A DNA stretch of 62,909 nucleotides from Chitinophagaceae bacterium (GTDB taxonomy: Bacteria; Bacteroidota; Bacteroidia; Chitinophagales; Chitinophagaceae), in the NCBI GenBank assembly GCA_004299085.1, contig SCQV01000205.1:1-62909 (forward strand), given 5' to 3'. Shown here piece after piece: positions 40,146 through 59,763 of the stretch. Every line of letters begins with the position of its first letter. The stretch's first letter is position 1. The position numbers and the translations under genes are program-made. A model generated the notes under the pieces. It had not been told where the DNA came from. It was given only the letters and a program-made list of their open reading frames with translations, and did no database searches.

Positions 40146-40176
40146 AAAATGGGCACATTGGATGGTGTGCCATTTT
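40146..40176 (+). terminator. Candidate intrinsic (bidirectional-looking) terminator after pirin
   Basis: aaaatgg(g)cac / gtgccatttt forms a 10-bp stem with one bulged G and a 10-nt loop. It has an A-tract 5' and a T-tract 3', and begins 4 nt after the stop codon. Confidence 0.45.
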
Positions 40177-40513
40177 AATAGAATATGGATTTGTAGTGAA
40201 ATGTACATATTAGCCAGTATAAAAAAACCATAGCAATTAAAGTAAGTAGGGCTTGCTCAACAACTCAATGAATATTTTAGAACGGGATTTTTACCCGAAT
40301 AGCTGGATATTTTGTATCCTTTGAAGTAAAGAATTTAATATTTGGACATATTCTAACTCCTTTTAAAACAAAGGTAACAGGGAGTGAAAAATTTGATGCA
40401 TGGGGTTCGAGCATTTTCTTATAAAGACCTTGCATCAAGGTTAGTATAAATAGACTGAAACTCTTAGTGGGATTCATTTTATTATTATTGAGCAAACCCT
40501 ATTTAAACTTTTA

Positions 40514-40797
40514 TTGAGCGTCGTGGCCATCTCAATTGTAGGGATTACCAATATTGTTTTCAACAAAATAGTAGGCTCCCTCAAAAATATAACGAGTAGC
40601 CCCGGTATGGAAACGGGATTAAAGAAATGGCGCAGTGGTATTGAAGCTGTTATATCCAATTTCAAAAGAAGATTTGGAATGTTTCGCCGTGATTGGAAAG
40701 AATTGAACCATTTTAAAGCAAAAGTATTCTGAAAGCCATAGCTTACAACATCAGAGTAATGACGGCCTTGGTATTGGAACGGCTCGAATTAGAATAA
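40514..40797 (+). mobile_element. C-terminal relic of an IS4/IS5-superfamily DDE transposase gene, frameshifted
   Basis: ...KKWRSGIEAVISNFKRRFGMFRRDWKELNHFKAKVF then a shift to KAIAYNIRVMTALVLERLELE*. The R-x-x-IE-x-x-I-x-x-x-K-R-x-x-G...W-K-G...N motif is the typical transposase tail. Weaker remnants (RDFYPNS...) may extend back to about 40270. Confidence 0.5.
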
Positions 40798-41134
40798 AGC
40801 GACCGGTACCTAAATTGGGTAGATGTGAATGTGCCCATGAACTAAAAGGATAGTGCATTTCTATGAATAATGCCAAATAAAAAGAGAAAGACGCATCAAA
40901 AAATGTTCGTGACATTATCTTTTTATTTAAAATATTGATTTAGAAATAATTTTTATTGTTAAAGCGACGAAAACTAAAATTTTTTAACCGACTTTATAGA
41001 CAGACACTAAGTAGCGGCTTATTCCCAAAAAGATTAAACACCTTCATCTCTTCAATTCGTCTCTTTTATAAAAAGTTGTCTTTTCAAAACATAATCAAAA
41101 ACATGAATCAACGATTTTAAGGGCAGACACATGT

Positions 41135-41809
41135 TTAAAACTTTCCATATCTTTTATAGGCTTCAACCGGGTCAACACCTTTTAAAATAGCCGTTCTTAC
41201 CCTATTTTCTGTTTGTAATACTTTTTCTGTTTGGTTAATTACTTCTTCCACTATCGCCAATGGTATAATGACAATCCCATCTCTGTCTGCTATTACATAA
41301 TCCCCCGTATGGATTTTAACTTTGCCAATGACAATAGTGCCAGCAAAGGAGGTGGCTTCCCATTTTGTTACTACATCCACGGGAGTAAGATATTTACAAA
41401 AGACCGGAAAATTAATCTTCTCAATAAATGCAGTATCGCGGCACCCGCCATCTACTATATATCCCCTAACCTCTTTATGAAGTAGCGTTTCAGCAGACAA
41501 TTCACCCATGTGAGCGACGGTGGTATCATGTGGTTGGCAAATAATTACATGACCACTTGGGGCCCTTGACAAAAGTTCACACCACTTTAATAAGCTATCA
41601 TATTCACTGATGGTATTGTTCCTTTTACCTTCAATTGTAAAGACTGTCCCTGTAATTTTATGATGAATATTTAATGGATTAATATTATACGGCAGCACCT
41701 GATCAGGATAACCCATAGCACGAAGCACATCATATACAGCTCCGGTGTAACATTGCTGCAATCTATCAGAGAAGGATAGTTTTGTATTTGGTTTATTATC
41801 TGCGTCCAT
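41135..41809 (-). CDS. RraA-family protein (class II HMG/CHA-aldolase-like)
   Basis: RraA-like pattern: GHVIICQ...MGELSAETLLHKEVRGYIVDGGCRDT...FPVFCK...GDYVIADRDGIVIIP. Confidence 0.8.
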   Translation of the reverse strand: MDADNKPNTKLSFSDRLQQCYTGAVYDVLRAMGYPDQVLPYNINPLNIHHKITGTVFTIEGKRNNTISEYDSLLKWCELLSRAPSGHVIICQPHDTTVAHMGELSAETLLHKEVRGYIVDGGCRDTAFIEKINFPVFCKYLTPVDVVTKWEATSFAGTIVIGKVKIHTGDYVIADRDGIVIIPLAIVEEVINQTEKVLQTENRVRTAILKGVDPVEAYKRYGKF

Positions 41810-41815
41810 TTTTAG

Positions 41816-44800
41816 TCATTTCAAAATATTATTCTTGAAAAAATGGTCAAGGGCATCCGCGTCAAGGTACTCGTCATCAAGGGTGTCGTAAATTGCATCT
41901 AAGGCAACGGGAACTTCAGTATCAGTCGCGATTAATTCAAGTACCTTTTCCCTTTCTTTAGAAGAAGAAACAGGTACGCTAAAATTCCAATACTTACCAT
42001 CAATATCCTTTTCTGACCCGCTGATCAACCAAAGACCAATTTTATCTTTGATCTGATTCCATTGACTTTTCAGATCACTTCCTTCCGTTAATAAAACTGA
42101 AGTATTTAGAGCGAGCTTAAGATTAGAAGCCCCCACATTTCTTATAAATTCCATAGCATCTGCTAAATTATAAGGAGGAATGCCAAACCTTACCCGTAGA
42201 TTTAAATGGATATCATATTTTTCTGAAATTTTACAAAGGGAAATAAAAGTCTCTTTAAAAGAATTCCAAGTCTGCTCTTGTGTAAAATTATTTTCAGGGA
42301 AACGGTGTAGTGGTAATATTATTTCTTTTGCCTGAAAAAGGGACATTTTGCTTAATACATCTTCAATCTTAGCCATACTATTTGCATAAGCATCATGGAG
42401 ATTATTAATCAATCGCAACTTTGGGAAAAAATCAACTCCCGAAGTTAAATCAACTATGATTTTTAATTTCTGCCTTTTAATCCATCCGGATTCTTGTTTC
42501 AAGACGGATTCTTCTTTTTGAGCCAGATACTTCCAATCTAAAACTACCCCATCAAAATGCTCAAAGAAAGTTGGTCTGCGCAATATCTCATTTTTTACCA
42601 TTCGGATACTTCTTAGCGGTAAGTAACGATCTCTGGGCCGTTGGGGAGGGATTGCGGACCCGATTTGTACTATATTCTGCTCTTGAACGTAGACTTCGAA
42701 GATACGAATATCACCCCCGGCCATGGTATTTGGACCGCTAATGCCTATTTCTTTTTTATCTATTCCTTCGGGCAAATATCCAATAGCTGTTTTTTCGGAT
42801 TGATCCAACGTTACTTCTTTTATTGATCCAATTTCTCCACAATGAGAAGATATATTAAATGGATACTCATTCCATGAATTATTGGCGATTCCTAGTAGAT
42901 ACTTCCCATCTCCTTTGCAACAGGTAATCAGGCTTAGTGAATCTCCCACATCAAATAATTTTTGATTACTAAATTCTTCATCTAATATGGCATGTACGTG
43001 GTTTAAAATTGGGAAAGGATTGGGCAACGGGTTATCAATTTCACTTTTCATATTTTGGCCGGATGTAATGATATTCATGTTGCTGATACCAAAAGCGCTG
43101 GCTAAAACAGTTACCCTGCCATTACCATATCCTGTTCGTACTGCGAGGGGAGTATTACCAGTTGTCGCCAGAATATCTGCATTTTCGGGGAAAGACAAGG
43201 AATAATAATTAAATGATACTTTTTCCGTGAATTTTTTGTTCCCTACAAAAACGGGGTGGTCTGTTTTTATATTCTTGTTTGCAGAATTGGTTTTTATATT
43301 GCCAAGGCCTTCAGGAAATTTACTTAAATTACCAGATGTAATAATTAGATGACCTCCATTTTTAATATAATTTTGCAGCTTATTATAAATCTCTTTGCCT
43401 CCGGAAAGTTCTCCTGCAATAACTAAGATTGGATACTGAGCCAAAATCCAATCTTCTGCATCACTGAGGACACAATCTGCAATATCGCCATATGGTGTAC
43501 GACAAATAAATCCCGACTCATCATGATAATAAGAAGAATTCTGATAGCCGGGATAAATCATGTTTAATACTGCATCCGTCAGGTAATCACCGGGATCATA
43601 AGGCAAATTTCCCCAGACCCTATATACATCTGAAGAGTATAGATGCCTTGGAAATGTCCAGCCTGCAAAGAAATCCAACATAAGTGCAACCGGAGTGTAC
43701 ATAACTCCTGGCTGGCCATTCTTTTTGACCCATTTTACAGCATTTTGCTGTATATGACCAATTGGGGTGAGTGCATCATTATTGGCCTTTGCCCTGGAAA
43801 AATCTTTGATCTTTTTTTCGTAAAACCACCCTTGGTCAAAACCAACCATCATGGAATTATACAAAATATGGCTATACATTAGTCTTTTCATCAGGCTCAA
43901 ACTTGTTCCCTTGCCAGGCCCATGATCTTCCCCGCTTGAGTTATAAGATTTATATCCCCAGCGATTCCACCCCGATGAATTACCAAACCAAGGAACACCA
44001 TACTGCTTCCCTGCTCCGCGAATAAAGGAGTAATACACTTGTCCATTAGGAAGCGCTTCCCCCGTTTCAGCCCCGATCAAGTTATAAACCCCTTCTTTTA
44101 GAAAATAATGTCCGAAGTTAAGTGAAACAAGAGTCGTTATTTTATTTCTCAGATCATCAGTTAGTTGTTCAAAGTGCTGTTGAAAATTAAAGTATTGATG
44201 AACCCTATTAGCCGATCTGGGATACATTTCAATTGCATAACCACCAATATATCGTCCATCCTGTTCTCCATTATCCATCCCCAGCCAATGATCTCCCAAC
44301 TTTGAACTAAATAACTCAGATAGCTTTGGAGAAAGTTTAAATTGTTCCCATGATCCAAGTCCACTGGTGCCAGGAATATATTTTAATTTTGTTAGTCCGG
44401 ATCCTGGAACATATCCCCATATATCGAATAAAAAAAGTCCTCTGCGTTGGAATTCGTCAATTAAAGCTGGAACATTATCAGCAGATAGGAACCCATGATT
44501 GGGCCAAATCACATTTCCCAGATGAAAAACTTTTGTATAAATATCCAAGTCCTTTGAATAATTTACGATTTTATTACCTTCAATTTGAAAACTTCTTAAT
44601 GTCATGAAATTTGTTTCATTGCTAAATGTATTCCAGTCTGGCGGCTTAACAAATCGGCGTTTATCGTCTGGATACTCACGTGGGTTTAGAAGATGAATGT
44701 TTATGTAATGCTTAGTAGAATTGGCGCTTTCTTGTTTGTTAATTGTAAGTAATTTATCTCCCACAGTGATATTGGGCAATTTGTTTACATATCCAATAGG

Positions 44801-44848
44801 GGCAAGAATGAGCAAATTCTTGATAGCAGTTCTTCTATTTATAGCCAT
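41816..44848 (-). CDS. 1010-aa multidomain protein with a Tat-like signal, an unassigned GH-like N-terminal region, a GATase1/beta-galactosidase-trimerisation-like middle and a C-terminal xylose-isomerase-like TIM barrel
   Basis: The N-terminus MAINRRTAIKNLLILAP is twin-arginine-like. GDHWLGMDNGEQDGRY and IGAETGEALP segments are present. YPILVIAGELSGG...GGHLIITSG is class-I amidotransferase-like. The last roughly 270 aa (KLKIIVDLTSG...HLNLRV...LKLALNTS) resemble the AP_endonuc_2 / sugar-phosphate isomerase TIM fold. Confidence 0.5.
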   Translation of the reverse strand: MAINRRTAIKNLLILAPIGYVNKLPNITVGDKLLTINKQESANSTKHYINIHLLNPREYPDDKRRFVKPPDWNTFSNETNFMTLRSFQIEGNKIVNYSKDLDIYTKVFHLGNVIWPNHGFLSADNVPALIDEFQRRGLFLFDIWGYVPGSGLTKLKYIPGTSGLGSWEQFKLSPKLSELFSSKLGDHWLGMDNGEQDGRYIGGYAIEMYPRSANRVHQYFNFQQHFEQLTDDLRNKITTLVSLNFGHYFLKEGVYNLIGAETGEALPNGQVYYSFIRGAGKQYGVPWFGNSSGWNRWGYKSYNSSGEDHGPGKGTSLSLMKRLMYSHILYNSMMVGFDQGWFYEKKIKDFSRAKANNDALTPIGHIQQNAVKWVKKNGQPGVMYTPVALMLDFFAGWTFPRHLYSSDVYRVWGNLPYDPGDYLTDAVLNMIYPGYQNSSYYHDESGFICRTPYGDIADCVLSDAEDWILAQYPILVIAGELSGGKEIYNKLQNYIKNGGHLIITSGNLSKFPEGLGNIKTNSANKNIKTDHPVFVGNKKFTEKVSFNYYSLSFPENADILATTGNTPLAVRTGYGNGRVTVLASAFGISNMNIITSGQNMKSEIDNPLPNPFPILNHVHAILDEEFSNQKLFDVGDSLSLITCCKGDGKYLLGIANNSWNEYPFNISSHCGEIGSIKEVTLDQSEKTAIGYLPEGIDKKEIGISGPNTMAGGDIRIFEVYVQEQNIVQIGSAIPPQRPRDRYLPLRSIRMVKNEILRRPTFFEHFDGVVLDWKYLAQKEESVLKQESGWIKRQKLKIIVDLTSGVDFFPKLRLINNLHDAYANSMAKIEDVLSKMSLFQAKEIILPLHRFPENNFTQEQTWNSFKETFISLCKISEKYDIHLNLRVRFGIPPYNLADAMEFIRNVGASNLKLALNTSVLLTEGSDLKSQWNQIKDKIGLWLISGSEKDIDGKYWNFSVPVSSSKEREKVLELIATDTEVPVALDAIYDTLDDEYLDADALDHFFKNNILK

Positions 44849-44893
44849 AATAAAAATTTTTGAAAATGAATTAGCGAGAGAACTTAATGTATT

Positions 44894-45397
44894 TTATAGG
44901 TCAATATTTTCAGGAGAACGATATTTTACTGTTTGCAAATGCTCGCAATATAAAACCAACTCTCCATCATTTTTAAACACTTCATAAGCTGCGCAATATA
45001 GCCCCATGTCTTTATATTTTGGTTGCTTGCTCAAGTCAGTTTTAATAGTATAAATAGTATCACCTATAAAAACAGGCTTGATGAATCGTAGTTTATCATA
45101 GCCATAGCTAAATGCATTCACACAGTTAGTCGCCACCAAACCTAACCCAACACTGAAAACAAATGCCCCGGCCACTAATCTTTTCCCAAATACCCCTTCA
45201 TTCTTTGCAAAAATCTCGTCAGCTACATAAGGGTGCATATCTAAAACGAGAGCATTGAATTGCATACTCTCTCCTTCACTGATAGTACGCCGTATAGAGC
45301 GTATTTTCTTTCCTATTACAATGTCCTCGTAAAACCAGTTTTCGGCATTCCATATAGGAATATCTTTGTGCTTCGTTGGATCAGGGTTCGGATTCAT
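44894..45397 (-). CDS. MaoC-family (hot-dog fold) dehydratase/hydratase
   Basis: 167 aa with the MaoC pattern D...HPYV.DE.FAK...FGKRLV.G. Confidence 0.8.
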
Positions 45398-45406
45398 ATA
45401 AAATAT

Positions 45407-46489
45407 CTATTTGTTACATTGAATGATTAAGTTACTTATTTTTACTGCACCATCATTACTTGATTTATAGGCAGCTTCCACACACGCCATAGTATAAATA
45501 CAGTCCTCTACAGAATTATCGGGTGTATTTACAGGGTCCTCCGCAGCCTTCATCATCTCTCCCATAGAGCCTATAAAGGCATGCGGGAACCAACTTCCTT
45601 CAATTTCCTTTGTTTTCCATTCTGCTTCTTTTCCCTCTTTTATAATGGTATATTCAAATAAGTCTGGAACACCCGTAGGATAATTCATCAATACACCCAT
45701 CTTTATTCTAATCGCCCCTTTTGTTCCTTCAAATTTGATATATGATTGTTGATGATGTAAACCAAATTGATGACAATGATTTGTCAAAATATCAGCTCTC
45801 ACGAGTTCGCCATAATCCATGATAATATTACTTCGTACAGATGCTAAATCCTGCATCATCGGATGCTTTGTTGTTTTAGCGTATATACCGATAGGATTAC
45901 CTAAGAAAGAGCGTATCAAGTCAATATAATGAATGCTATGATAAGGTATTTCTACACGTGGCGCCTCGAAAAGGAAACTCCATAAATTCCATGGCGTAAA
46001 GACATTAACATTCACTTCTATATCGCAAAGCTCTCCAATGTTTCCCTTTTCTATCATTTCTCTTGCCATTGTAATAAAAGGTGCATATCTCAGTTGGAAA
46101 TTAACCCCTGCAATCATCTTCTTATCTCGTGTTATTTGAAGGATTTGTTTTGCCTGCTCATAATTTTCTCCCATCGGTTTTTGCATCAACACTATGGCAT
46201 GACCAGGCAACTTCTGTAATAAACATGTAAGCACATTTCCGGGTACTGCTAAATCAAACACTACCTTGGATGGAGCATCCTCCAGCAACTGATTTATGCT
46301 TTCATATACCTTGGGCACAGCATATTTTTCTGCGGTAGCCTTTGCCTTTTCAATATTGATATCGTAAATACCAATTACATTAAAATTAGCCAGCCTGTAA
46401 GCCGGTAGGTGAGCATCATTAACTATTCCCCCCGCGCCTATAATTATTATAGGTGCTGTATTTTTAGGTATTGAAGAATGAGGTTTCAT
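45407..46489 (-). CDS. Gfo/Idh/MocA-family oxidoreductase
   Basis: N-terminal Rossmann IIIIGAGGIVNDAHLPAY and the EKP-like MQKPM motif. Confidence 0.85.
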   Translation of the reverse strand: MKPHSSIPKNTAPIIIIGAGGIVNDAHLPAYRLANFNVIGIYDINIEKAKATAEKYAVPKVYESINQLLEDAPSKVVFDLAVPGNVLTCLLQKLPGHAIVLMQKPMGENYEQAKQILQITRDKKMIAGVNFQLRYAPFITMAREMIEKGNIGELCDIEVNVNVFTPWNLWSFLFEAPRVEIPYHSIHYIDLIRSFLGNPIGIYAKTTKHPMMQDLASVRSNIIMDYGELVRADILTNHCHQFGLHHQQSYIKFEGTKGAIRIKMGVLMNYPTGVPDLFEYTIIKEGKEAEWKTKEIEGSWFPHAFIGSMGEMMKAAEDPVNTPDNSVEDCIYTMACVEAAYKSSNDGAVKISNLIIQCNK

Positions 46490-46529
46490 ATCTGATTATT
46501 TTATATCAACATTTCTAATCATTGCGCTT

Positions 46530-47585
46530 TTATGCCCCAGTCAGTGCACCAACATAATTGCCGTATGTTAAAAAGAGTACTGACAATATTAATACCGTTA
46601 TCGCAAGAGCTAGCGACCATTTTGTCCGTATTTTTACACCTTTCCATTCTTTTAATATTAATCCTATTACACTACTAAAAAGTACCAACATAATCATATG
46701 AATCGCCCAACTGCTAAATTCGTATGGGCCCATTCTTGTATTACCCATTCCATAGAAAAAGAATTGTGAATACCATAACAGACCGGTTATAAATGCCAAT
46801 ACATAATTGAATGGTAATATGGTTCTATTCTTGACTTTTTTCAATGTTTTATATTCTCCAAAAGTCTTTTGTTTGAGATGTAAATAGATACAGTAAATAG
46901 CCGTTGTGAGGAAAGCGCCAGTATTAGTAAAAATATAGATAACATTCCCTTGAAACTGGCCGGCGCCATATTTTGCAGCTACGTCTGCAATAGGCTGTCC
47001 CTGAGCCAAAGCAATTCCGTATACCGCAGAGAGTATTCCTGCTAATAAGCATAGAGGCAATCCTTTCCTAAGTGAAAACAAAGAAGACGAATTTTCTTTT
47101 ATTTGCAGATCTTTCTCCTTAAATCGACCTGCGAAGCCACAGATAGCAATACCCAATGCCCCGATAGCGATGCCCATCATCAGCCAACCTGATCCCGCTT
47201 TAGTCAATATCTTTTCTAATTGTCCGTTCACTAATGGTGGAATTATAGTGCCTAATACACAGGATAGCCCTACAGATATAGCGTATGTTAAGGAGAATCC
47301 TACATATTTGATAGCCAGCCCGAAGGCTGTACCTCCGATGCCATAAGCTGCACCGAGTATAAAAGCCTCATACATGGCATCCACGGGTGCTTCTTTCAAT
47401 ACTTCTCCTAAATGAGGTATGGTAATCCATGCCCCGATAATCGGTAATAGGAACCAGCAGAACACAGCCTGAGCCAGCCAGTACGTCTGCCAGGACCACG
47501 CCTGGGTTTTTTCCTGCGGAGTGTAACACACTGAAGCACTTCCGGCACCAACAGCATGAAATGAGACACCAGTTATAACACTCAT
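46530..47585 (-). CDS. rhaT: RhaT-family sugar:H+ symporter (L-rhamnose/proton symporter-like)
   Basis: 10-TM DMT-type protein. The N-terminus G..FH..GA.S...Y.P..K...WSW.T.W and the C-terminus W...M...VL...IGL.LKEW align with E. coli RhaT as recalled. Confidence 0.8.
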   Translation of the reverse strand: MSVITGVSFHAVGAGSASVCYTPQEKTQAWSWQTYWLAQAVFCWFLLPIIGAWITIPHLGEVLKEAPVDAMYEAFILGAAYGIGGTAFGLAIKYVGFSLTYAISVGLSCVLGTIIPPLVNGQLEKILTKAGSGWLMMGIAIGALGIAICGFAGRFKEKDLQIKENSSSLFSLRKGLPLCLLAGILSAVYGIALAQGQPIADVAAKYGAGQFQGNVIYIFTNTGAFLTTAIYCIYLHLKQKTFGEYKTLKKVKNRTILPFNYVLAFITGLLWYSQFFFYGMGNTRMGPYEFSSWAIHMIMLVLFSSVIGLILKEWKGVKIRTKWSLALAITVLILSVLFLTYGNYVGALTGA

Positions 47586-48448
47586 GATAAATTTGACAGG
47601 TTATAAAATGAATCTGCATTTTTATAAAGAACCTTTTCCTGTTCTTCCATAGCCAATTCTTCTGCTACAATTTCTTGGTAAGCCAACCAGGCTTTTTCAT
47701 AAGGTCCAGCCAACAATGCTATCGGCCAATCACCTCCACAAAAACAGCGGCTTGTTCCAAATACCTCAATCGCGTACATTAGGTAGGGTTTCAGATCGTC
47801 TTTTGCCCATCTGTCTCCGTCGGATGCACTTGATCCCAAGCCTGATATCTTAGCATACACATTATCGTGTAATGAAATCTCTTTCATCAATTCTCCCCAT
47901 CGGCCAAATCTCTCTTTAGAGGCTATAGGTGGCTGATTTAAATGATCCAGAACAATTCTCAATGCAGGCAATCTTTCTGCCACCTGTATAGCTGTCTCTA
48001 AGTGTGCGGTATTAATTCCTACCACATCATAAGGGATCTTATAAGAAGCTAAAATATTCAAGCTTGCCATAACGCTGTCTTGTAAAAGCCATTGAGGGCT
48101 TGCTTCATTATGAATAAGATGACGACAACCTTTAAAATAGAGATTATCCAGATACTTCTCATTGAGTGCTTTTACGGTCGCTTCTGGATCTATTAAAGGC
48201 AGCCAACCTACCACTCCTTTTATCCAATCAGTTTTAGATGCAGTTGTCAGCATAATATCCGTATCATCAAAGTTATTAGCAGCTTGTACCAATATACCCT
48301 GTGTAACATTAGCTTTAGAGATAAGAGGGCTTAACTGTTCGATGGAATAGGTTTTATTTAGAATACTGGTATCATTTTTCAACCAGGAGTATTCTGCCTT
48401 TTCCAAATTCCAGACATGAATATGAGTATCAATAATACCTTTTATCAT
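47582..48448 (-). CDS. Amidohydrolase_2-family protein (sugar-lactonase / LigI-like class)
   Basis: IIDTHIHVW metal/active-site start and DHL...P. Size is about 288 aa. It overlaps rhaT by 4 nt. Confidence 0.75.
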   Translation of the reverse strand: MIKGIIDTHIHVWNLEKAEYSWLKNDTSILNKTYSIEQLSPLISKANVTQGILVQAANNFDDTDIMLTTASKTDWIKGVVGWLPLIDPEATVKALNEKYLDNLYFKGCRHLIHNEASPQWLLQDSVMASLNILASYKIPYDVVGINTAHLETAIQVAERLPALRIVLDHLNQPPIASKERFGRWGELMKEISLHDNVYAKISGLGSSASDGDRWAKDDLKPYLMYAIEVFGTSRCFCGGDWPIALLAGPYEKAWLAYQEIVAEELAMEEQEKVLYKNADSFYNLSNLS

Positions 48449-48472
48449 AAGTTAAATATTACACTATGATTA

Positions 48473-49612
48473 TTATAAATCAAATTCTCTCTTTATTGAT
48501 TCCGTATGCTCGCCTAATCTGGGTGCTCCCATGGGGGATTTCAATATTTGTCCGTCCACCCTTATGGGACATCGAGTTGTTTTCAAAAATTGATTCCCTA
48601 TAGAAACTTCCTGCTCCATTTCCAGTACTTTATATCCATCTTCTTGTACCAGCGCATCATAGTTTAATACCTCTGCACACCAAATATCAGCCGGCCCTAA
48701 TATGTCAAGCCATTCCGTAACTGATTTATTATTCAAATAATCCTGTAAGATCGTTTTGATTTTATCTCTCTTATTGAACCAGTCTGTTGAATCAGTAAAG
48801 GAGAGCAATGCATCACAGCCTAATAATTTTCCAAGCTGAGGGATATTTCCCATGGATAATGCCAGGTAACCGCTATTGGTTTTATAAATACCATAAGGTG
48901 CTGCAATATAAGCATGCCCGTTATTTATGCAGCTTCGACGGGGCAACATATTACCGTCGTTATAAAAGCATGTTAAGACCTCAAACTGAAAATCCAGCAG
49001 GCTTTCTAACATGCTTACTTCTATCAGGGCGCCCTTTCCCGAAGTAAGACGTTCATAAATAGCAGTCAATATACCTTGGACGAGATGTGTTCCAGCTAAT
49101 ATATCTGCGACTGCAACACCCATTGGGGTTGGATTATCCTGATCATTACCACTCAACCACGTAATGCCAGAAACGGCCTGAAGTAATAAATCCTGCCCAG
49201 GCTTGTCTTTCCATTCTCCTTCATCCCCATAGCCATTGACATACGCATAAATTAATCGGGGATTAAGTTCTTTTACTGATTCATAAGAAAGTCCAATCCG
49301 CTCCATAACCCCTGGGCGAAAATTGTGTATCAGGATATCTGCGTGTTTTATCAGCTTTCTAACCGCATTCAAATCATTGGCATTTTTCAGGTCTGCCTGA
49401 AAGCTTTCTTTATTTCTATTGATAGCATGAAAAATAGTGGACTCTCCTTTCACCATTGTATCACTTACGTATAATTCCCGGCAAATATCGCCGGTGACCG
49501 GACGTTCAATCTTAATAACCCTCGCGCCCATGTCTGCAAGTCTCAAACTTGCAGAAGGGGCCGATAAAAACTGGCTAAAATCTAGCACTAATATATCTTC
49601 CAAAAGTTTCAT
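48473..49612 (-). CDS. Family III (CaiB/BaiF) CoA-transferase
   Basis: ILVLDFSQFLSAPSASLRLADMGARVIKIERP...GD is the hallmark N-terminus. An Asp-containing GQDLL segment is present. Confidence 0.85.
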   Translation of the reverse strand: MKLLEDILVLDFSQFLSAPSASLRLADMGARVIKIERPVTGDICRELYVSDTMVKGESTIFHAINRNKESFQADLKNANDLNAVRKLIKHADILIHNFRPGVMERIGLSYESVKELNPRLIYAYVNGYGDEGEWKDKPGQDLLLQAVSGITWLSGNDQDNPTPMGVAVADILAGTHLVQGILTAIYERLTSGKGALIEVSMLESLLDFQFEVLTCFYNDGNMLPRRSCINNGHAYIAAPYGIYKTNSGYLALSMGNIPQLGKLLGCDALLSFTDSTDWFNKRDKIKTILQDYLNNKSVTEWLDILGPADIWCAEVLNYDALVQEDGYKVLEMEQEVSIGNQFLKTTRCPIRVDGQILKSPMGAPRLGEHTESIKREFDL

Positions 49613-49617
49613 TTTCT

Positions 49618-50754
49618 CTATTTTACTATCTCTCTTTTAAATTCGTCTATATGTTCTCCTAATTTGGGCGCAGGTTTGTCAGATAAAAAATACTGCTTAT
49701 TGTAACGGATGGGACAACGGGTTGTCTTTATCTTTTTATTGCCTGCTAAAAATTCCTGCTCAATATTCAATGCTCGATATGTTGAGGATTGTATTAATTG
49801 ATTCCAGTCCGAAACAGGCATAATCCACAAATCGTGTTTTTGAACCTTTTTCAGCCATCCTGCCGTGGTATCGGTTAGAAGAAAATTAGATAGAATCGCC
49901 TTGATTTCATCCCTTTTTTTAAAAGATTCTTCCTCGGTAAATTTATTCAATTCTATACATTCAATTGCTGCATTCAGTTTCTTCAGTGGCATCATTGCTA
50001 TGGCGATATAACCGTCTGACGTTTTATAAATGCCATAAGGGGCACCTAGTAAAGGGTGTCCATTGCTAATCTCTGACCTTTTAGGTTGCTTCTTGCTTTG
50101 GAAATAAGTCGTGAAATATTCAAACTGAAAATCTATTAAAGATTCCAATAGGCTTAATTCCAGCAATGCGCCTTTCCCAGTTTTATGACGCCTAATGAGT
50201 GCAGCGAGGATCGCCTGTACAGTTTGGTTGCCACATAAATAATCACTCATCGCAAGTCCGAATGGTATTGGGTGATCCTTTGCATTTCCTGTAGTATAGG
50301 TTAGACCCGATATGGATTGTATTAATAAATCCTGCCCAGGCTTGTGGCTCCATGGCCCCTTTTTTCCGTAACCGGATATTTCTGCATAAATAATGCGCGG
50401 GTTTATTTTTTGTACGGAGGCATAATCCAATCCAAAAGACGCCATTATCCCAGGACGGAAATTATGGGTTATTACATCAGCGTGGACAATCAATTGTCTT
50501 ACAAACCTCAAATCATCGGGATCTTTCAAATTGGCCGTAATGCTTTTCTTATTCCTATTGATCGTATGAAATAAAAGCGAGCTATCATCTACCCATAAAT
50601 TTTCTATAGATAGTCTGCGTCCTGCATCTCCTCCTTTGGGACGCTCCACCTTGATAACTTCAGCTCCAAAATCTGCAAGGCGTAATCCAGCACAAGGACC
50701 AGATAAATATTGGCTAAATTCTAAAATTACTATTCCTTTTAATGGCAATTCCAT
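49618..50754 (-). CDS. Family III (CaiB/BaiF) CoA-transferase, a paralog of the previous gene
   Basis: IVILEFSQYLSGPCAGLRLADFGAEVIKVERP...GD. It is separated from its paralog by 5 nt. Confidence 0.85.
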   Translation of the reverse strand: MELPLKGIVILEFSQYLSGPCAGLRLADFGAEVIKVERPKGGDAGRRLSIENLWVDDSSLLFHTINRNKKSITANLKDPDDLRFVRQLIVHADVITHNFRPGIMASFGLDYASVQKINPRIIYAEISGYGKKGPWSHKPGQDLLIQSISGLTYTTGNAKDHPIPFGLAMSDYLCGNQTVQAILAALIRRHKTGKGALLELSLLESLIDFQFEYFTTYFQSKKQPKRSEISNGHPLLGAPYGIYKTSDGYIAIAMMPLKKLNAAIECIELNKFTEEESFKKRDEIKAILSNFLLTDTTAGWLKKVQKHDLWIMPVSDWNQLIQSSTYRALNIEQEFLAGNKKIKTTRCPIRYNKQYFLSDKPAPKLGEHIDEFKREIVK

Positions 50755-50771
50755 ACAGTTATTTTTATCTC

Positions 50772-51920
50772 CTATTTTCTTCTGCTACTCCTATATAATT
50801 CATTCATATTCCTTAATAGTTGTTCAGCATTTCCTGTCTCAAGCAAATGTTCCTGTAATAAAGTACCGGCTCGATCTTGGAAGGAAAGATAACCGTTATA
50901 CCGTGGTCTCATAAATGCTCTGTCTATAGTGGGTAAGGTGTTCATGAAAAAATTATTGCAATAGTAATTTGCTGTTTCACTTTCCCATGCAGCACGATGC
51001 CCCGGTTGTCCCCCGTTTTCTACGTACAAAGTAGATTGGATATCTGGAGAAGCGACCCATGATGCAAATCGGATAGACCAGGTTTTGTTCTGTGTAAACG
51101 AGGATAAAGATAGTCCTGTTCCCCCTAATGTGCTGCACAGCCGCTTGCCTTCCTTAAATTGTACGACATCAGTGTAAGTCAGTAAATGGGGCGCATATCC
51201 TTTTCGTGAATAGTTTGAATATCCATAAGAAAAAGGACAATACCAATAGTCATCTGTAGATGACATTAACTCTGCTATTGTAATAGGATTATAGGTAAAC
51301 ATCCTTTTATTGACTATGCTCCAAAGTTCCTTCATGGTATCAATAGCCTTAATGCCTGTTTCATCATCTATCATCTTTTCCTCGTCTGCGAAAGGCATAT
51401 TTCCATGAGCTGTGCAGAACATATAAAAATTCATCAGCAGGTCAATGGGTATAGAGGGTACGGCTAGCTTACCTCTTTTAGCTAAATTTATTACTTCCTG
51501 CCATGTATCTGGAACAGGGGCATTATTCTTCTCAAGTAAATCTGAACGATAACTGGCCACAGGAGTAGCTGCATCAATTGCCAATGCCCATTGGTGCCCT
51601 TCATAATAATAACTCTGGTGCGAAGGTCCAACAGAGCTTTTCATTTGATCTGATAAATATTCTTCAGATAATAAATTATCTAAAGGCACTATGCACCCTG
51701 TAGCTGCTGCGCAGCCTACCCAAGGGTGATCAATGATTAGCAAGTCATATAGTTGAGTTAGTTTTTCAATAGGATAATCCGCAAACTCCTGGAGTGTACG
51801 TTTTGTCCATATTATTTCCACTTCGGGGTGCAATTCAGAAAACCTTTGTGAAGTAGCCAACAATGGTGTAATACCCCGGCTATGCCCCCAGGTTATTCCT
51901 TTCAAAATAACCTTACTCAT
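50772..51920 (-). CDS. Periplasmic-binding-protein (solute-binding, family 1-like) fold protein without a signal peptide
   Basis: 382 aa starting [16 protein letters not shown], with no hydrophobic leader or lipobox. The ...[10 protein letters not shown]...[11 protein letters not shown]... pattern resembles SBP_bac_1-type proteins. No ABC permease or ATPase gene occurs anywhere in the window. Confidence 0.55.
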
Positions 51921-52356
51921 GTTTTGACTTTTTCTCTACTAACAATAGATGTTCACATACCATTACCAGTTTATCATGCTGATTAAATGTTTCTATCAAC
52001 TCTCTAACTATGCCATAGCCAGGCTTTTTATGATCTTTTTTATCTTTGATGGTAATAGTTACCTTGATAGTATCCCCAATAAATACCGGCTGCAAGAACC
52101 GCAGCCTTTCATATCCATAGGTCATACTCACTTCGTTAATACTATTCGCCGTCATTCCTACGGCTATACTAAAAATTAGCGTACCATGAGCTATCCTCTG
52201 TTTGAACGGCTGTTTTTTACACCATTCCGCATCCACATGATGTGGGAAAAAGTCACCGGTTTGGCCAGCATGGATTATAATATCAGTTTCGGTAATGGTA
52301 CGACCATGAGATTTACGAACGTTCCCAATAATATATTGTTCAAAATATGTTTCCAT
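51913..52356 (-). CDS. MaoC-family (hot-dog fold) dehydratase/hydratase
   Basis: 147 aa with [12 protein letters not shown]...RIAHG. It overlaps the next gene by 8 nt. Confidence 0.8.
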
Positions 52357-52395: not shown

Positions 52396-54921
52396 CTATG
52401 GCCTTAAATATATTATTTCACCAGGATAGGTTTTAATACTTATGATTTTTTCAGTCATTTTTCTCTTTTCATTATTAGTAATTAAATAGCCTTCATTACC
52501 CCATGGCATAATAAGCCTTAGTATGTTCCCTTTTTCACTTTTAATCTTTATTTCCTTCACGTTTCCATCTTTTAAACTGGCACTTACCAAAAAAGCACCG
52601 GCTGTTCTTAAGTCATAAAAGGAAGCGTTTTTATTTTTAGGCCAATTGGGAAATAAACGAATAATCCCGTCATAGCTCTGGATTAGACATTCATTGATCA
52701 CAACCGGGAGCGCAAAATTTTCGAACCATATACCCATGTGGGCCATAAAATCAAAGGTAGTAAGATCACTATATCTGCCTCCTGATTGCATTACCATGTC
52801 AGTTGCCGTGCCATCTGGCAATAAACAATATTTTATTTGCCGTTTGAACTTATATAGATTTAACATTCCAATTCGCGCCGCTTGCAGATTTCTAAATACA
52901 AGATCATTTCCGCCTTCGTTTTGAGAATTTTTATACGTATTCTTTAACATCTGAAGAGTAGTCAGATCCGAACCCAGACCATAATCATCTCCTGGGAAGA
53001 CCGGAGTTAAAGGTAGTGGTACATTATAAATGACGTTTGCATTTGCTCCTGGTGCTCCCACCAGAACTTTTCCGTATTTCTCTGATTGAGCAGTAGGATA
53101 TTTAGGATAGTGGTCCAGTATATCCCGAATATTATTTAATAAATATTTCTCCTTCTCTTGAGTGCCTAATACTCTTGTAGCCTCCTGAAAGGCTTTGAAA
53201 ATAAATTTAGTAAGAGCCAAATCAATAATACAATCATAGTCGTACTTAAAACCGGGCTGTAATCCATAAAGCTCAGGAGGAATAGTAGGGAATATATGAA
53301 AATCATTATCACCCCATCTTGGCAACCCGCTTGCAACATGCCGCTTCATATAAGCCACTAAGAAAGTAACCGCTTCCTTTATCGGAACATAAGCACGATT
53401 CTTAAGAAAATTAGTATCTCCTGAATATAAATAGTGCAACCACAACTCTTGTACGGCCCAAGGTGTTTCACAAATCTCCCAACCCCAGGTAGGAACAGGA
53501 TAAGGGTTCATAGTCATCTTAACAGGATAGGAAGAGTGAGGAAAATAAGCACCGGGAAGATTATAATATTCTCTTGCCCATTCCTTACTTGAACCCAATA
53601 GGAAATTTATTAAATTTACATACGGTAAGTCTTTTTCCAAGTGATTACTTGAAAACGTCATCCAAAAGGGTTGTTCAATATTGTAATTCATATGATAATC
53701 TCCGTGCCAGGCAGTGCCAATTTTGTCATAGCTCCAATTTGCAAAGAGCCCCGGGCATGTTGCTTCTGCTTTTGCTGCGCAATTAAAAAAATAAAGGTTG
53801 TGGTACCAAACACCCTCAAGAAATGAATCACTAAGGACAACTCCTGATTTGTTCCAATAATCTTTCCAGGTATTTATATTACTATCCAATTTCAAGGTTA
53901 AGTCTTGCATCTTAGGCGTAATTATTGATATTGCCTTAGTGGGTACGGTAGAATCTGCCCCATATTCGAGAGACACCGTACCAATGAATTTGTCTACTTG
54001 TGATAGAGCCGATTCCAGAGGGCTCATTTTTATTTTATCCCCGTACAAGTCCATCCGCATTTTGGATGTTTGTATCTTATCGTTTATTGGCAGGTTAACA
54101 GTGACGCTCAAACGAAAGGCACGATCTTTGGGATCTCCCTTCCCCATATTATACTCTTTCGGTTCCTCGGCTGGCAGGGTTTGTCTAAAAGAAAGTGTTC
54201 CTCTTTTTAAATTTTCATTGACGCTATATCTGGGAAATTCTTTTGGGGTAGATGGATCTGGAATGATTTTTATTCTATTGAAGATATTAGTATGCAGGCT
54301 TCCGTCAGGATTAACCAGCCACATCCATAGCTTATCTTTTTTTAAATCAACAAATATTTTTAAGAAAACTTTATTTTTTTGAGCTGTTCTCATTTCAATT
54401 GTACAAACCCCGGTAGCAATGTCCAGTTTATATCCTACCATATCAACGCTTCGTCTATCAAAACCCAATAATACGGAGCCGCATGGGAATGGCCTCGGAT
54501 AAGGCTTATTATAGTTTTCTCCTGCCATTTTAACATAATTAGAAAACCAGGTGTCTTCCGATAAAGAAGAAAATGTATCAGGAATTGCCTTGACCTTATT
54601 GAACACATAGTTAAAAGTGCCTATTTCTTTACGATGGTTTTCTGCAATTCGAATATCCCAAACGTTATTATCTCCAAAGCGAAGCACTATAGCATCTGGA
54701 CGCGTGGTAACTACAACTCCCATAGCACCATTACCAAGTAAAGCCCCCTCAAAAAAGTTGGGTGCTGGACCATTAAAAGTTATTGGGAAAAGTTTTGCCT
54801 GATTAAAGGAGGAAAAGTTTTGGTCAATTTGTGCACTTACACAAGTTACCAAAAAGACTGTAAAAGTCAATATCCCCCAAATTGTCTTTTTTATCATTTT
54901 AATAAATAACATGACGAACAC
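52396..54921 (-). CDS. Secreted GH95-like (alpha-L-fucosidase/galactosidase-type six-hairpin) glycoside hydrolase, divergent
   Basis: Signal peptide (likely start ATG 54897). N-terminal ALLGNGAMGVVV resembles the GNG..G motif of the GH95 N-domain. WHGDYHMNYNIEQPFW resembles the W..dyt.N.N.qm.YW segment. The assignment is tentative. Confidence 0.45.
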   Translation of the reverse strand: MFVMLFIKMIKKTIWGILTFTVFLVTCVSAQIDQNFSSFNQAKLFPITFNGPAPNFFEGALLGNGAMGVVVTTRPDAIVLRFGDNNVWDIRIAENHRKEIGTFNYVFNKVKAIPDTFSSLSEDTWFSNYVKMAGENYNKPYPRPFPCGSVLLGFDRRSVDMVGYKLDIATGVCTIEMRTAQKNKVFLKIFVDLKKDKLWMWLVNPDGSLHTNIFNRIKIIPDPSTPKEFPRYSVNENLKRGTLSFRQTLPAEEPKEYNMGKGDPKDRAFRLSVTVNLPINDKIQTSKMRMDLYGDKIKMSPLESALSQVDKFIGTVSLEYGADSTVPTKAISIITPKMQDLTLKLDSNINTWKDYWNKSGVVLSDSFLEGVWYHNLYFFNCAAKAEATCPGLFANWSYDKIGTAWHGDYHMNYNIEQPFWMTFSSNHLEKDLPYVNLINFLLGSSKEWAREYYNLPGAYFPHSSYPVKMTMNPYPVPTWGWEICETPWAVQELWLHYLYSGDTNFLKNRAYVPIKEAVTFLVAYMKRHVASGLPRWGDNDFHIFPTIPPELYGLQPGFKYDYDCIIDLALTKFIFKAFQEATRVLGTQEKEKYLLNNIRDILDHYPKYPTAQSEKYGKVLVGAPGANANVIYNVPLPLTPVFPGDDYGLGSDLTTLQMLKNTYKNSQNEGGNDLVFRNLQAARIGMLNLYKFKRQIKYCLLPDGTATDMVMQSGGRYSDLTTFDFMAHMGIWFENFALPVVINECLIQSYDGIIRLFPNWPKNKNASFYDLRTAGAFLVSASLKDGNVKEIKIKSEKGNILRLIMPWGNEGYLITNNEKRKMTEKIISIKTYPGEIIYLRP

Positions 54922-55122: not shown

Positions 55123-56640
55123 TTAATAGCCATGGTTCTGTACCAACTTAGGATTAGCGTCTATTTCGCTCTGTGAGAAAGGAAACAAATAATTTTTATT
55201 AGGATCAAATTGGCGATGAGTTCCACCTGGGTCCACTAATGTAGGTATATAAGTTTGGGCTATTTTCCAACGTTTAATATCTAAATATCTATCCCCTTCA
55301 AGGCCTAATTCAACCCTCCTTTCCTCCCTAATTGCCTCTCTCATTTGTCCTTGGTTTAATCCTTGTGGCAGTGGTGGCATATTAACACTTGGTCTAGCAC
55401 GTACCATATTGATAGCTGCATAAACTGAGGCATCTGGGCCGACTGCTTCGTTTTCGGCTTCCGCATACATTAACAAGACTCCAGCATATCTTAGTAAGAC
55501 CCAATCCTGGTCACTTTTAGTTGAATAATCATACGGGTAGGCATCTAAATTTACTCCTTTTAACGCTTCATAACCTGTCACAGAAGAGCTACCGCCGCTG
55601 CCATTGAGGTAAACCGAGTCTCCTGCAGAATTAACAAGAGCTTGACTAACTCTAGCCACTGTATATGCAAGCCTTGGATCCCGATTCTTGAAAGGATGAT
55701 TAGGATCATAAAGTGGTGAGGTGGAGATCGGTTGACCGTCTGTACATTCAAAGGCGTTGACAAACTCTTGTCTCGGATTAATCAGTCCCCACCATCCGAT
55801 CTCTATATCTTGATCCGAATAGTAATTGGGATTAAGAAATTTACTTGAGAAAATAATTTCAGGATTATTTATTTGTTCTGATTTTAAAAATAGGCTTTGA
55901 TAATTGTCACAAAGATGAAAGACTCCACTCTGAATGATTTCATTTGCCACTTCAGCAGCTTTTGAGTATTGTTCATTATATAATAAGACTTTAGCCTTAA
56001 GAGCCAAGGCGGAACCTTTCACTGCATAACCGGAATATTGGGTATTAGGAAGATTGGCAATTGCAAAGTCAAGATCTTTATATATTTGTGTGTCAACCTC
56101 AGCCACTGTACTTTGCTTTATCCTAGCCTCTTCAACCGTGACCGGTGCCGTATATAATGGTACTCCTCCGTAGAAATTAGTAAGAGTGAAATAAGATAGC
56201 GCTCTTAAAAATCGAACTTGTGCTTCATACTGGGTTTTTGTTTCGTCACTAATGGGTGTCCTTCCGATATTTGCTAGGAAAAAGTTACACGAACTAATCC
56301 CATTATAGCAATCATCATAAATACTTGAAACAAGGCCTCCTGAGGTTGGTGTAATAACTCCTGCAGCAAGCGTTTGCAAAGAACTTGACCCTTGACTCTG
56401 CTGAGAATAGTCTGCATCACCCCCCAAGATGGACCACATCATTTGTTGGTAATCAAATGTAGAACTGGTAAGTCGATTATATACGCCGGCAAGGGCCATA
56501 TCCGCGTCTTGTTGAGTCTGCCAGAATGTTTGACTAGATAATTGATCTAGTGGTTCTTTATTTAAGAATTTACTACATGAAGTCAGAATTAACACCATGA
56601 CTCCAACCGAAAAAATCTTAATACCTATATCCTTTATCAT
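55123..56640 (-). CDS. RagB/SusD-family outer-membrane lipoprotein
   Basis: Lipobox LTSC and TPR-like SusD patterns (FLRALSYFTLTNFYGGVPL; C-terminal ...NPKLVQNHGY). Confidence 0.9.
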   Translation of the reverse strand: MIKDIGIKIFSVGVMVLILTSCSKFLNKEPLDQLSSQTFWQTQQDADMALAGVYNRLTSSTFDYQQMMWSILGGDADYSQQSQGSSSLQTLAAGVITPTSGGLVSSIYDDCYNGISSCNFFLANIGRTPISDETKTQYEAQVRFLRALSYFTLTNFYGGVPLYTAPVTVEEARIKQSTVAEVDTQIYKDLDFAIANLPNTQYSGYAVKGSALALKAKVLLYNEQYSKAAEVANEIIQSGVFHLCDNYQSLFLKSEQINNPEIIFSSKFLNPNYYSDQDIEIGWWGLINPRQEFVNAFECTDGQPISTSPLYDPNHPFKNRDPRLAYTVARVSQALVNSAGDSVYLNGSGGSSSVTGYEALKGVNLDAYPYDYSTKSDQDWVLLRYAGVLLMYAEAENEAVGPDASVYAAINMVRARPSVNMPPLPQGLNQGQMREAIREERRVELGLEGDRYLDIKRWKIAQTYIPTLVDPGGTHRQFDPNKNYLFPFSQSEIDANPKLVQNHGY

Positions 56641-59600: not shown

Positions 59601-59716
59601 AAAGGAGATTGGTTTCCTGCTGAAATGATCTTTCCGGAAATGATGTTTTGAGCATTAACAGTTCCATAAAGGAATAAGGTAATTAGCCCCATAAACAACT
59701 TTCTAAGCAATGACAT
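56669..59716 (-). CDS. SusC/RagA-family TonB-linked outer-membrane transporter
   Basis: Signal peptide, CarboxypepD_reg domain (ISGKIIS...PLPGVTVMVKGT), TonB-box/plug region (VIGYGTKKKVDLTGSV) and terminal F/L. There is no STN domain. The ORF extends to 59758, but ATG 59716 (MSLLRKLF) gives a normal signal peptide. Confidence 0.9.
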   Translation of the reverse strand: MSLLRKLFMGLITLFLYGTVNAQNIISGKIISAGNQSPLPGVTVMVKGTSNGTISDNSGHFSIKASKNATLIFSFLSYKTVAVPVNGQRLINVTLQESANDLNSLIVIGYGTKKKVDLTGSVTSVSGRELIKSPVSDPVDLLEGQVAGLKIAQSYGKPGDPGNNIQIRGLGTFSSAGSTPLVLIDGVPGDMSTLDPNSIESISILKDAAASAIYGSRGANGVILVTTKTGKPGPLTIEYDGNIQFQRATRLPKLLYNSAEYMEYWNEGRIREGLQPYFSQEDIDAFKDHPNDPVHYPNFNWEKFMFHTGFAQNHHLGVSGGDKKTNFRLDLGYLNQGGIISIYSFQKYNLHFSINSQVKKWITIGGEVNMNRQDITESYINSSNGDYLLGVFAQAPNYTPTMKLADGQTVYVARYSSEIGEYTARNPFEADAVGFNKTQDYTFVPQVYVDIRFNKHLNWYTKGAFTYGNTFNKLREHPEDTYYFKDSSYADNNFPVHEGVTDNSTENTLTSLFSTLHYDNTFKSEHHLSVLLGYDLESNFFRQLGAHRTSFPSDNLNEINAGSTDGQTTSGTANAWSLLSYFGRVNYDFKGKYLFEANMRYDGTSRIAPQGRWGLFPSVSAGWRISEESFMKNLNWLSNLKIRGSWGQLGNQNVGLYPYQDILSITSYPFNNLDPGVQLTRLVDKSLKWETTTMTDFGVDVDILDGLLTATFDWYNKLTSGILYQAPIPASVGLSAPTINYGKMRNRGWEFEVSHQNTIGQFHYGVSVNFSTNKNKVLQVVAPSIGSSTITKAGIPFNSFYLIKWIGIFQSQEEINKSPTQQYTPQPGDLKFADINGDGVVDSKDRVVVPGAYPKFYYGGTLSLGWKGLDISAFFQGVQGQYFYFNGGGWGFSPYVQGSPPTINFVKNMWTPTHHTNEYPAMYITGYPPVSGVQSTYWLKNASYLRLKNLIISYNLPGNIIKKIGFGPTSIYISGNNILTVTKYPGSDPERSTQGGRYSAYPQIKTYTFGVRLTL

Positions 59717-59755
59717 AGTTGTAAAGTTTAAAATGCATAATAAAGAATCTAACGT

Positions 59756-59763
59756 CAAAATTA
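59756..59763 (-). promoter_or_regulatory. Candidate Bacteroidota -7 promoter box (TAnnTTTG) for the susC-like operon
   Basis: The minus strand reads TAATTTTG about 40 nt upstream of ATG 59716. No clear -33 TTTG was seen at ideal spacing. Confidence 0.3.

Follow-up and report, generated by a model that had tools for sequence, protein, structure and literature searches.

What does a protein do that joins a glycosidase-like barrel and a sugar-isomerase-like barrel behind a single export leader? This question is raised by a gene at 41816–44848 on the minus strand of contig SCQV01000205.1 from a Chitinophagaceae bacterium, the whole analyzed stretch of which (62,909 nucleotides) is referred to as the window. 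The gene lies in a polysaccharide utilization locus (PUL) and encodes a protein of 1010 amino acids. An earlier reading of the DNA alone (the sequence-only reading) had described a twin-arginine-like N-terminus, about 450 residues that it could not place, a GATase1-like middle and a xylose-isomerase-like C-terminus, and had proposed a new glycan-processing activity. The results presented here lead us, with moderate confidence, to regard the product as a periplasmic carbohydrate-active enzyme, exported by twin-arginine translocation (Tat), from a large undescribed family. The first barrel (domain A) would be its catalytic domain and the last barrel (domain D) an accessory domain that is not an isomerase.

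A single gene with an export leader

The open reading frame (ORF) begins with ATG, runs for 1010 codons and ends with a stop codon at 41816–41818. It contains no internal stops, and it is the sole copy in the 4.98-Mb, 625-contig genome. An open frame of 1010 codons in DNA of 39% G+C is far beyond chance. The sequence-only reading had placed the ORF at exactly these coordinates, and the strand is minus. The motifs that it quoted are present in the protein: MAINRRTAIKNLL corresponds to residues 1–13, GDHWLGMDNGEQDGRY to residues 185–200, and AETGEALP to residues 260–267. It had also considered that the frame might be two genes with a stop hidden by the assembly. Homologues of 950–1010 amino acids align over 95–100% of the protein and the frame is single and uninterrupted, so the idea that the assembly wrongly fused two genes is rejected. 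Identity to these homologues is 94% for the closest (P0002), 60–66% for a Bacteroidota group and about 50% for hundreds of proteins from other phyla.

Residues 1 to about 30 (44759–44848, minus strand) form the leader, in which N-R-R-T-A-I-K is followed by the short hydrophobic stretch NLLILAPIGYV; Arg5 and Arg6 are encoded at 44831–44836. Judged by its sequence, the leader combines a Tat-like motif with a hydrophobic region, as had been suspected. A twin-arginine (RR) motif is found within the first 25 residues of 30 of the 55 aligned homologues, typically in the form MNRR[EQ]FV[KR]. Homologues without this motif mostly have classical Sec signal peptides, and one homologue carries a sorting domain of the type IX secretion system (T9SS). 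This distribution suggests that export is a trait of the family and that the Tat route is optional.

Four domains follow the leader

The whole-protein AlphaFold2 model (predicted local distance difference test, pLDDT, 81.5; predicted template modeling score, pTM, 0.86) shows four domains after a leader region in which pLDDT is below 50 (residues 1–43). All four are encoded on the minus strand. Domain A (residues 45–455; 43484–44716) is predicted to be a divergent (β/α)8 glycosidase-like barrel on the basis of a separate domain model, VIA comparisons (all-against-representatives) and conservation. Domain B (residues 456–600; 43049–43483) is a GATase1-like α/β domain of the type called the trimerization domain in glycoside hydrolase (GH) family GH42, as indicated by sub-threshold Pfam matches, hhalign, a hidden Markov model (HMM) and Foldseek. 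Domain C (residues 601–737; 42638–43048) is an all-β sandwich, recognized from the secondary structure of the model and from multi-domain Foldseek matches to GH42, GH164 and the GH35 enzyme IaSGT. Domain D (residues 738–1010; 41819–42637) is a TIM barrel of the xylose-isomerase fold without the canonical metal site, as supported by VIA, the PF01261 score and the mapping of metal ligands.

In sequence searches with the full protein, Pfam matches were all below threshold: GLMA_2nd, GATase1_like, DUF4350 and DUF4159 at residues 465–593, and AP_endonuc_2 (PF01261) at residues 784–947. The PF01261 match scored 18.7 bits against a gathering cut-off of 31.1; many homologues carry a precomputed PF01261 match. 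NCBIfam returned two epimerase models at E values near 0.01 and nothing else, and a PDB sequence search with the single protein and with a 55-sequence family profile found no chain at a meaningful E value. A family-profile HMM compared with the GH42 structure 5xb7 matched in domain B. With the whole model, Foldseek aligned GH35 IaSGT, GH42 enzymes and the GH164 enzyme Bs164 over 500–800 columns (E about 1e-11), and the C-terminal part was matched separately to YcjR and ketose 3-epimerases. The three parts named in the sequence-only reading are thus all found again by Pfam, Foldseek, the models and VIA, including the GH42-type character of the middle; the β-sandwich that separates the GATase1-like domain from domain D is a further element.

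Domain A resembles a glycosidase barrel of no described family

Domain A has no match in Pfam, where the first 450 residues lack even a sub-threshold hit, and none in the NCBIfam and PDB sequence searches. The sequence-only reading had likewise been unable to place this region, and had allowed that a well-characterized family might claim it; in these three collections none does. The domain was folded alone with an alignment of 98 sequences from an exhaustive search, which gave a model of high confidence (pLDDT 93.2, pTM 0.93) with clean alternation of β-strands and α-helices. Its VIA neighbors were exclusively glycoside hydrolases, at a root-mean-square deviation (rmsd) of about 4 Å and 6–12% identity. 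The list is headed by GH164 (Z 16.5, rmsd 4.6 Å, 308 amino acids) and GH5_18 (Z 15.7), followed by GH98 (Z 15.2 and 14.9), a GH5 mannosidase (14.8) and GH42 (14.2 and 14.0), with GH35, GH2, GH140, GH157 and GH99 at lower ranks. Named neighbors by ESM features were GH98 (0.83–0.85), a ‘GH_cat’ family, GH42 and GH112; all lie at or below 0.85, which is below the tool’s reliable level, and they serve as leads only. A confident barrel model, structural neighbors that are all glycoside hydrolases and the lack of a family match together argue that domain A is a glycosidase-type TIM barrel claimed by none of the described families.

The domain A model has strands at 80–83, 113–117, 139–144, 188–194, 237–241, 255–262, 287–291 and 334–337, each followed by a helix. 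In the VIA comparison, small single-domain GH5 barrels align wholly inside model residues 10–336. This supports those eight strands as the barrel, and leaves residues 387–391 and helix 419–431 as a linker to domain B.

Conserved residues stand at the end of every barrel strand. These are Arg85 (strand 1), Trp115 and Asn117 (strand 2), Asp142 and Trp144 (strand 3), Glu195-Gln-Asp197 (strand 4), His247 (strand 5), Glu261 (strand 6), Asn290 and Ser292 (strand 7), and an acidic residue at 338 (strand 8), which is Asp in this protein and Glu in most relatives. The codons of the three candidate catalytic carboxylates lie at 44264–44266 (Glu195), 44066–44068 (Glu261) and 43835–43837 (Asp338), all on the minus strand. 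Asp392, Trp397 and Glu444 are also conserved in domain A. Glu195 and Asp197 are invariant among 98 diverse relatives, other architectures included, and Glu261 and the acidic residue at 338 are each retained in at least 90% of these. Asp338 is shared with 7 others of the 55 aligned proteins and is correlated with Gln339. Conserved polar residues at all eight strand ends are what a functional TIM barrel would be expected to show in its active site. Glu195 is likely to be the general acid, its position in the model being that seen in clan GH-A, GH98 and others, and Glu261 or Glu/Asp338 is likely to be its catalytic partner. The triple of Glu195, Glu261 and Glu338 resembles the Glu/Asp/Glu set of the inverting GH98 enzymes. 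By linear interpolation on the GH42 alignment, the GH42 nucleophile falls near residue 338, the register being approximate for the GH42 and the GH164 alignment alike.

Domain D has the isomerase fold and has lost the metal site

The last 270 or so residues had been taken for a sugar-phosphate isomerase/epimerase barrel, and the fold is confirmed by superposition. VIA with residues 738–1010 returned ketose 3-epimerases, UlaE, xylose isomerases and YcjR at Z 21.8–24.2, with rmsd 2.4–3.0 Å over about 250 residues and 9–13% identity. The best matches to ketose 3-epimerases had Z 23–24 and rmsd 2.6 Å, covering 251 of about 270 residues.

In three independent alignments, the canonical Glu-Asp-His-Glu set of metal ligands falls on Arg885, residue 915, Leu941 and Asp984. 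These were made with AsbF, with the tagatose 3-epimerase KeDt3e (in which Glu150, Asp183 and His209 were aligned) and with a profile built from the genome's own seven canonical paralogues; individually they are weak (E 0.005–0.16), yet they are concordant in strand register. In place of the first Glu stands Arg885 (42194–42196, minus), which is Arg in 55 of 55 family members. The Asp is replaced by Asn915 (42104–42106, minus), a position occupied by Ser in 40, Glu in 5 and Asn in 3 of the 55, and the His by Leu941 (42026–42028, minus), where all 55 have Leu, Met or Phe. Asp984 (41897–41899, minus) takes the place of the second Glu and is Asp in 54 of 55. The agreement of the three alignments in register argues that the canonical metal site is gone throughout the family, with three of its four ligands lost.

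A pocket of invariant residues remains in domain D, consisting of Asp771, Asp800, Arg812, Asn816, Arg849, Glu852, Asn853, Arg885, Asn909, Trp940, Asp948, Trp954 and Asp984. Domain D is thus expected to bind a ligand, and the several arginines in this pocket hint at one with an anionic group. Domain D clearly illustrates how an isomerase/epimerase barrel can lose its metal site and yet be retained as a fixed accessory of another enzyme, and the current labels ‘TIM barrel protein’ or ‘sugar phosphate isomerase’ are misleading annotation for such proteins.

Twin-arginine starts are also present in four of the seven canonical PF01261 proteins of the same genome (L084, L085, L087 and L088, on contigs C621, C459, C113 and C158), with SNRRDFLK, TSRRNFLR and TSRRTFLK among them. 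Predicted Tat export is thus common among barrels of this fold in the organism. A search for short proteins with a D-type barrel gave 35 matches, nearly all of them fragments that start within domain B or C on tiny contigs, and a stand-alone family of such barrels was rejected. The sole apparently genuine stand-alone D-type barrel is P0301 (369 amino acids, on a 258-kb contig), which has its own RR leader.

A large family across several phyla

The combination of barrels had been called unusual. The four-domain architecture is not a rarity of this locus; it is the fixed arrangement of a large family, occurring at about 50% identity in more than 1300 proteins from Bacteroidota, Acidobacteriota, Planctomycetota, Verrucomicrobiota, Hydrogenedentota and Omnitrophota. 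A search with domain A put the family at no fewer than 683 clusters (50% identity level) with E ≤ 1e-3, of which 206 reached E ≤ 1e-30. Among the best 149 clusters, about 83 have all four domains. The others include A-B(-C) proteins of 640–740 amino acids without domain D, as well as long forms with LamG, CBM9 or CBM4_9 modules ahead of A-B. These relatives suggest a conserved A-B core, with domain D as an accessory that is fixed within a single large subfamily. A carbohydrate substrate is also supported by the carbohydrate-binding modules found in relatives. Architectural variants are seen in P0054, P0070, P0210, P0215, P0222, P0226 and P0256; one variant is fused to an α/β-hydrolase (PF00326) and one has a C-terminal T9SS sorting domain.

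Relatives are encoded at 303 loci of species-representative genomes. The best 80 of these are all in metagenome-assembled genomes (MAGs), mostly from soil, peat, fen and groundwater, and belong to Chitinophagaceae (the nearest, at 64%), Acidobacteriota, Planctomycetota, Verrucomicrobiota, Hydrogenedentota, Omnitrophota, Bacteroidales and Prolixibacteraceae. Several gene-bearing contigs (L043, L051, L066 and L024/L028/L037) are binned in MAGs of Bathyarchaeia, Bifidobacteriaceae and Nitrospirales; these are odd hosts and likely reflect binning error or gene transfer.

The homologues are named only ‘hypothetical protein’ or ‘TIM barrel protein’ in their sources, and literature searches for this four-domain architecture found no description of it. 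No Pfam model, solved structure or assayed member was found for the domain A family. The family stands as a good candidate for a glycosidase family not yet described, and that it has a new enzymatic activity is put forward as a hypothesis. If it is a glycosidase, it would form a new CAZy family and would probably supply a missing linkage specificity in PULs with GH29, GH95, GH2 and GH106, with relatives in about 300 species-level genomes of glycan degraders from soil, peat and freshwater.

Comparison with known enzyme families

The GH42 β-galactosidases and α-L-arabinopyranosidases (Thermus A4, 1KWK; B. circulans, 3TTS; BlArap42B, 5XB7) share the order TIM barrel, GATase1-like domain and β-sandwich with the protein studied here. 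The whole-model Foldseek match (E about 1e-11), the barrel superposition (Z 14.0–14.2) and the alignment of domain B by HMM and hhalign further support this likeness. However, neither PF02449 (at E ≤ 1) nor PF08532 is matched, the barrel cannot be aligned by sequence, and both the conserved Asn-Glu pair and a clear strand-7 Glu are absent. The present protein is also predicted to be exported and has a fourth domain, whereas GH42 enzymes are mostly cytoplasmic. A search for GH42 in 41 genomes of the phylum found one locus.

The best single structural neighbor of domain A is the GH164 β-mannosidase Bs164 (6T5O), at the Z of 16.5 given above, and it has the same three-domain body. Identity is 6% at an rmsd of 4.6 Å, PDB searches by sequence and profile found no sequence relationship, there is no fourth barrel, and the score is barely above those of GH5 and GH98. 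The GH98 endo-β-galactosidases and endoxylanase (2WMH, 2WMI and 9H6H) have barrel Z scores of 14.2–15.2 with the top identity in the list (12%), and they supply the top three named ESM-feature clusters. GH98 acts on fucosylated (blood-group) antigens, and the family studied here accompanies fucosidases. However, all GH98 scores lie below the confidence lines of the tools, PF08306 is not matched at E ≤ 1, and GH98 has no GATase1-like domain. No GH98 (PF08306) gene was found in a search of 401 genomes of the phylum together with control genomes.

The GH35 β-1,2-glucosyltransferase IaSGT (7VL3) is the top whole-protein Foldseek match (E 4e-12) and has the same A-B-C arrangement, but its barrel has Z 13.2 at 8–13% identity and domain D is missing. 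Ketose 3-epimerases, YcjR and xylose isomerase (PF01261) superpose on domain D over the whole barrel. They differ in that the metal ligands are replaced in domain D, which is found essentially just as the C-terminal domain of this family.

Genomic setting

As had been proposed from the sequence, the gene lies in a PUL, with a SusC/SusD pair and a GH95-like gene on the same strand (SusC, 56669–59758; SusD, 55123–56640; GH95-like, 52396–54921; all minus). The co-directional run continues from these with a MaoC protein, a solute-binding protein (SBP)-fold protein, two family-III coenzyme A (CoA)-transferases, an Amidohydro_2 lactonase-like protein, a RhaT-type symporter, a Gfo/Idh/MocA protein and a second MaoC protein. 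The 1010-codon gene is penultimate, and an RraA-like aldolase gene ends the run; an AraC regulator is divergent, upstream of it. Gaps of 45 nt and 6 nt separate the gene from its MaoC and RraA-like neighbors, and within them no promoter or terminator beyond chance expectation was found.

The genes surrounding the 1010-codon gene at 41135–52356 (minus) form a cytoplasmic module: the two MaoC proteins, the SBP-fold protein, which has no signal peptide, the two CoA-transferases, which are CaiB-type, a fuconolactonase-like Amidohydro_2 (E 1e-42), the symporter, the Gfo/Idh/MocA protein and the RraA/HMG-aldolase-like protein. Its gene content resembles that of a route for 6-deoxy-sugars or sugar acids from which a CoA branch departs. 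These pathway partners are absent beside 78 homologue loci, at which just SusC, SusD and GH95 recur, each at 3 of 78. The lack of synteny means that the local CoA-transferase/MaoC/RraA pathway says little about the 1010-residue protein.

All-against-all clustering of the neighbors at the 78 loci found no partner in more than 11. The commonest were Gfo/Idh/MocA (11 loci), a LuxR response regulator (10) and GH29 (8 loci, with 15–16 genes). Immediate neighbors of homologues include GH29, GH2, GH106, GH95, GH127, GH32, GH109, GDSL esterases, a sulfatase and SusD. In two Bacteroidales PULs (L023, 1326–19693; L047, 4374–22810) the order is SusC, SusD, the family gene, (GH29), GH2, a β-lactamase-like gene, a β-helix gene, GH29 and DUF5107/TPR. 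In a third (L059, 1315–15589) it is DUF5107/TPR, GH43/32-like, GH110-like, GH95, the family gene and GH106. GH29 genes occur about once per 69 kb of flank compared with once per 405 kb in five host genomes, an enrichment that is inflated by tandem copies. This setting suggests fucose-decorated complex glycans and nothing more specific. The pectic substrates that had been put forward for screening are indicated by none of the tests here. The three Bacteroidales PULs come from fen and peat; large DUF5107+TPR proteins, which are uncharacterized, recur in four loci.

Weighing the readings

In the favored reading, the exported carbohydrate-active enzyme would work as follows. Domain A would be the catalytic module, a strongly diverged (β/α)8 glycoside-hydrolase barrel, with Glu195 donating the proton as general acid and Glu261 or Glu/Asp338 assisting it. 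Domains B and C would provide the body plan shared with GH42, GH164 and GH35 IaSGT, and would probably serve oligomerization. Domain D would most likely be a substrate-binding, lid or structural module and no isomerase. The protein would act beside the GH95-like enzyme, trimming oligosaccharides that SusC/SusD bring in, and the target glycan would probably contain fucose or a related 6-deoxy or L-sugar. A bolder version, which we consider rather unlikely, would be a new GH family that uses carboxylates outside the GH-A pattern (Glu195 of strand 4 together with Glu261 of strand 6, Glu/Asp338 of strand 8 or both). The metal-free barrel would be a second active or substrate-shaping site, its Arg-rich pocket accepting an acidic or unusual sugar, and the enzyme would cleave a linkage in fucose-decorated glycans for which there is no known enzyme.

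Several results weigh against the favored reading. Searches of Pfam, NCBIfam and the PDB give no sequence-level link from domain A to any characterized enzyme, Foldseek with domain A alone returned no match below E 1e-3, and hhalign of the family profile with a GH42 protein aligned domain B alone, at 15% probability. The VIA list for domain A is flat (Z 12–16.5, rmsd about 4 Å), as a generic TIM barrel would give. The position on strand 7 (287–291) that is the clan GH-A nucleophile site by strand count is Asn/Ser and not Glu, and the residues before Glu195 are Asn-Gly, of which the Asn is conserved in 33 of 55 only. These two features suggest that the machinery of domain A is not canonical. 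Asp338, where most relatives have Glu, is odd for a strictly placed nucleophile. The roles given to residues of domain A follow solely from secondary-structure order and conservation. Lastly, the neighborhoods of homologues are heterogeneous and the enrichment of fucosidases is modest.

The two barrels could instead make the protein bifunctional, with domain A cleaving a glycosidic bond and domain D carrying out a second, metal-independent step on the released or bound sugar (anomerization, epimerization, de-esterification, or elimination on a keto- or uronate sugar). The polar pocket that is invariant in the family and lies on the catalytic face of domain D, a fold whose nearest neighbors are sugar epimerases, among them the 3-keto-glucoside epimerase YcjR, the obligatory A-D fusion in a large subfamily and the position of Gfo/Idh/MocA oxidoreductases as the commonest neighbor cluster (11 of 78 loci) would fit such an enzyme. 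However, three of the four Glu-Asp-His-Glu ligands are gone from domain D, one of them now Arg, and to our knowledge all characterized members of the fold use divalent metals on these ligands. A hydrolase-isomerase is made less likely by this loss. Many relatives of domain A also lack domain D, and adjacency in 11 loci may be chance in phyla as rich in Gfo/Idh/MocA genes as these. We consider a bifunctional enzyme unlikely. That domain A is non-hydrolytic on the same scaffold, either a transglycosylase like GH35 IaSGT or a lyase/phosphorylase like GH112, is in our view quite unlikely. IaSGT is the top match for the whole architecture, GH112 phosphorylase clusters are among the ESM-feature neighbors and the carboxylate layout is non-canonical, but IaSGT scores no better than the hydrolases, predicted export disfavors a phosphorylase, and a PUL setting beside exo-glycosidases fits hydrolysis.

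Loss of the ancestral catalytic site in domain D, together with the lack of a known-family catalytic motif in domain A, would be expected of a protein that descends from an enzyme fold but serves, without catalysis, as a glycan binder or scaffold. Against this, the eight strands of domain A all carry invariant carboxylates and aromatic residues where they end C-terminally, a pattern typical of an active TIM-barrel site, and about 62% mean column identity across phyla implies strong constraint. We consider this alternative very unlikely. The position of the gene between MaoC and the RraA-like aldolase, at gaps of 45 nt and 6 nt, would fit another role, in which the surrounding cytoplasmic sugar-acid pathway (lactonase, Gfo-type dehydrogenase, RraA-like aldolase, CoA-transferases and MaoC) obtains its ‘missing’ dehydratase or isomerase step from domain D. 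Dehydratases of the AsbF and IolE types do share the domain D fold, with a weak match to the AsbF profile. However, the protein carries an export signal, domain D lacks the metal site that those dehydratases need, and none of the pathway genes of the window is found beside the 78 homologues elsewhere. This role is extremely improbable.

Other features of the window

An ORF-poor stretch of about 960 nt (40172–41134), with ORFs of 54–72 amino acids only, lies 3’ of the RraA-like gene. Next to it, a bidirectional hairpin (40152–40171) follows a convergent pirin gene. An Rfam scan of the window gave no match. At the edge of the PUL, just past the AraC regulator, a fragment of a DDE transposase is encoded on the plus strand at 61970–62584 (DDE_Tnp_ISAZ013, E 3e-57).

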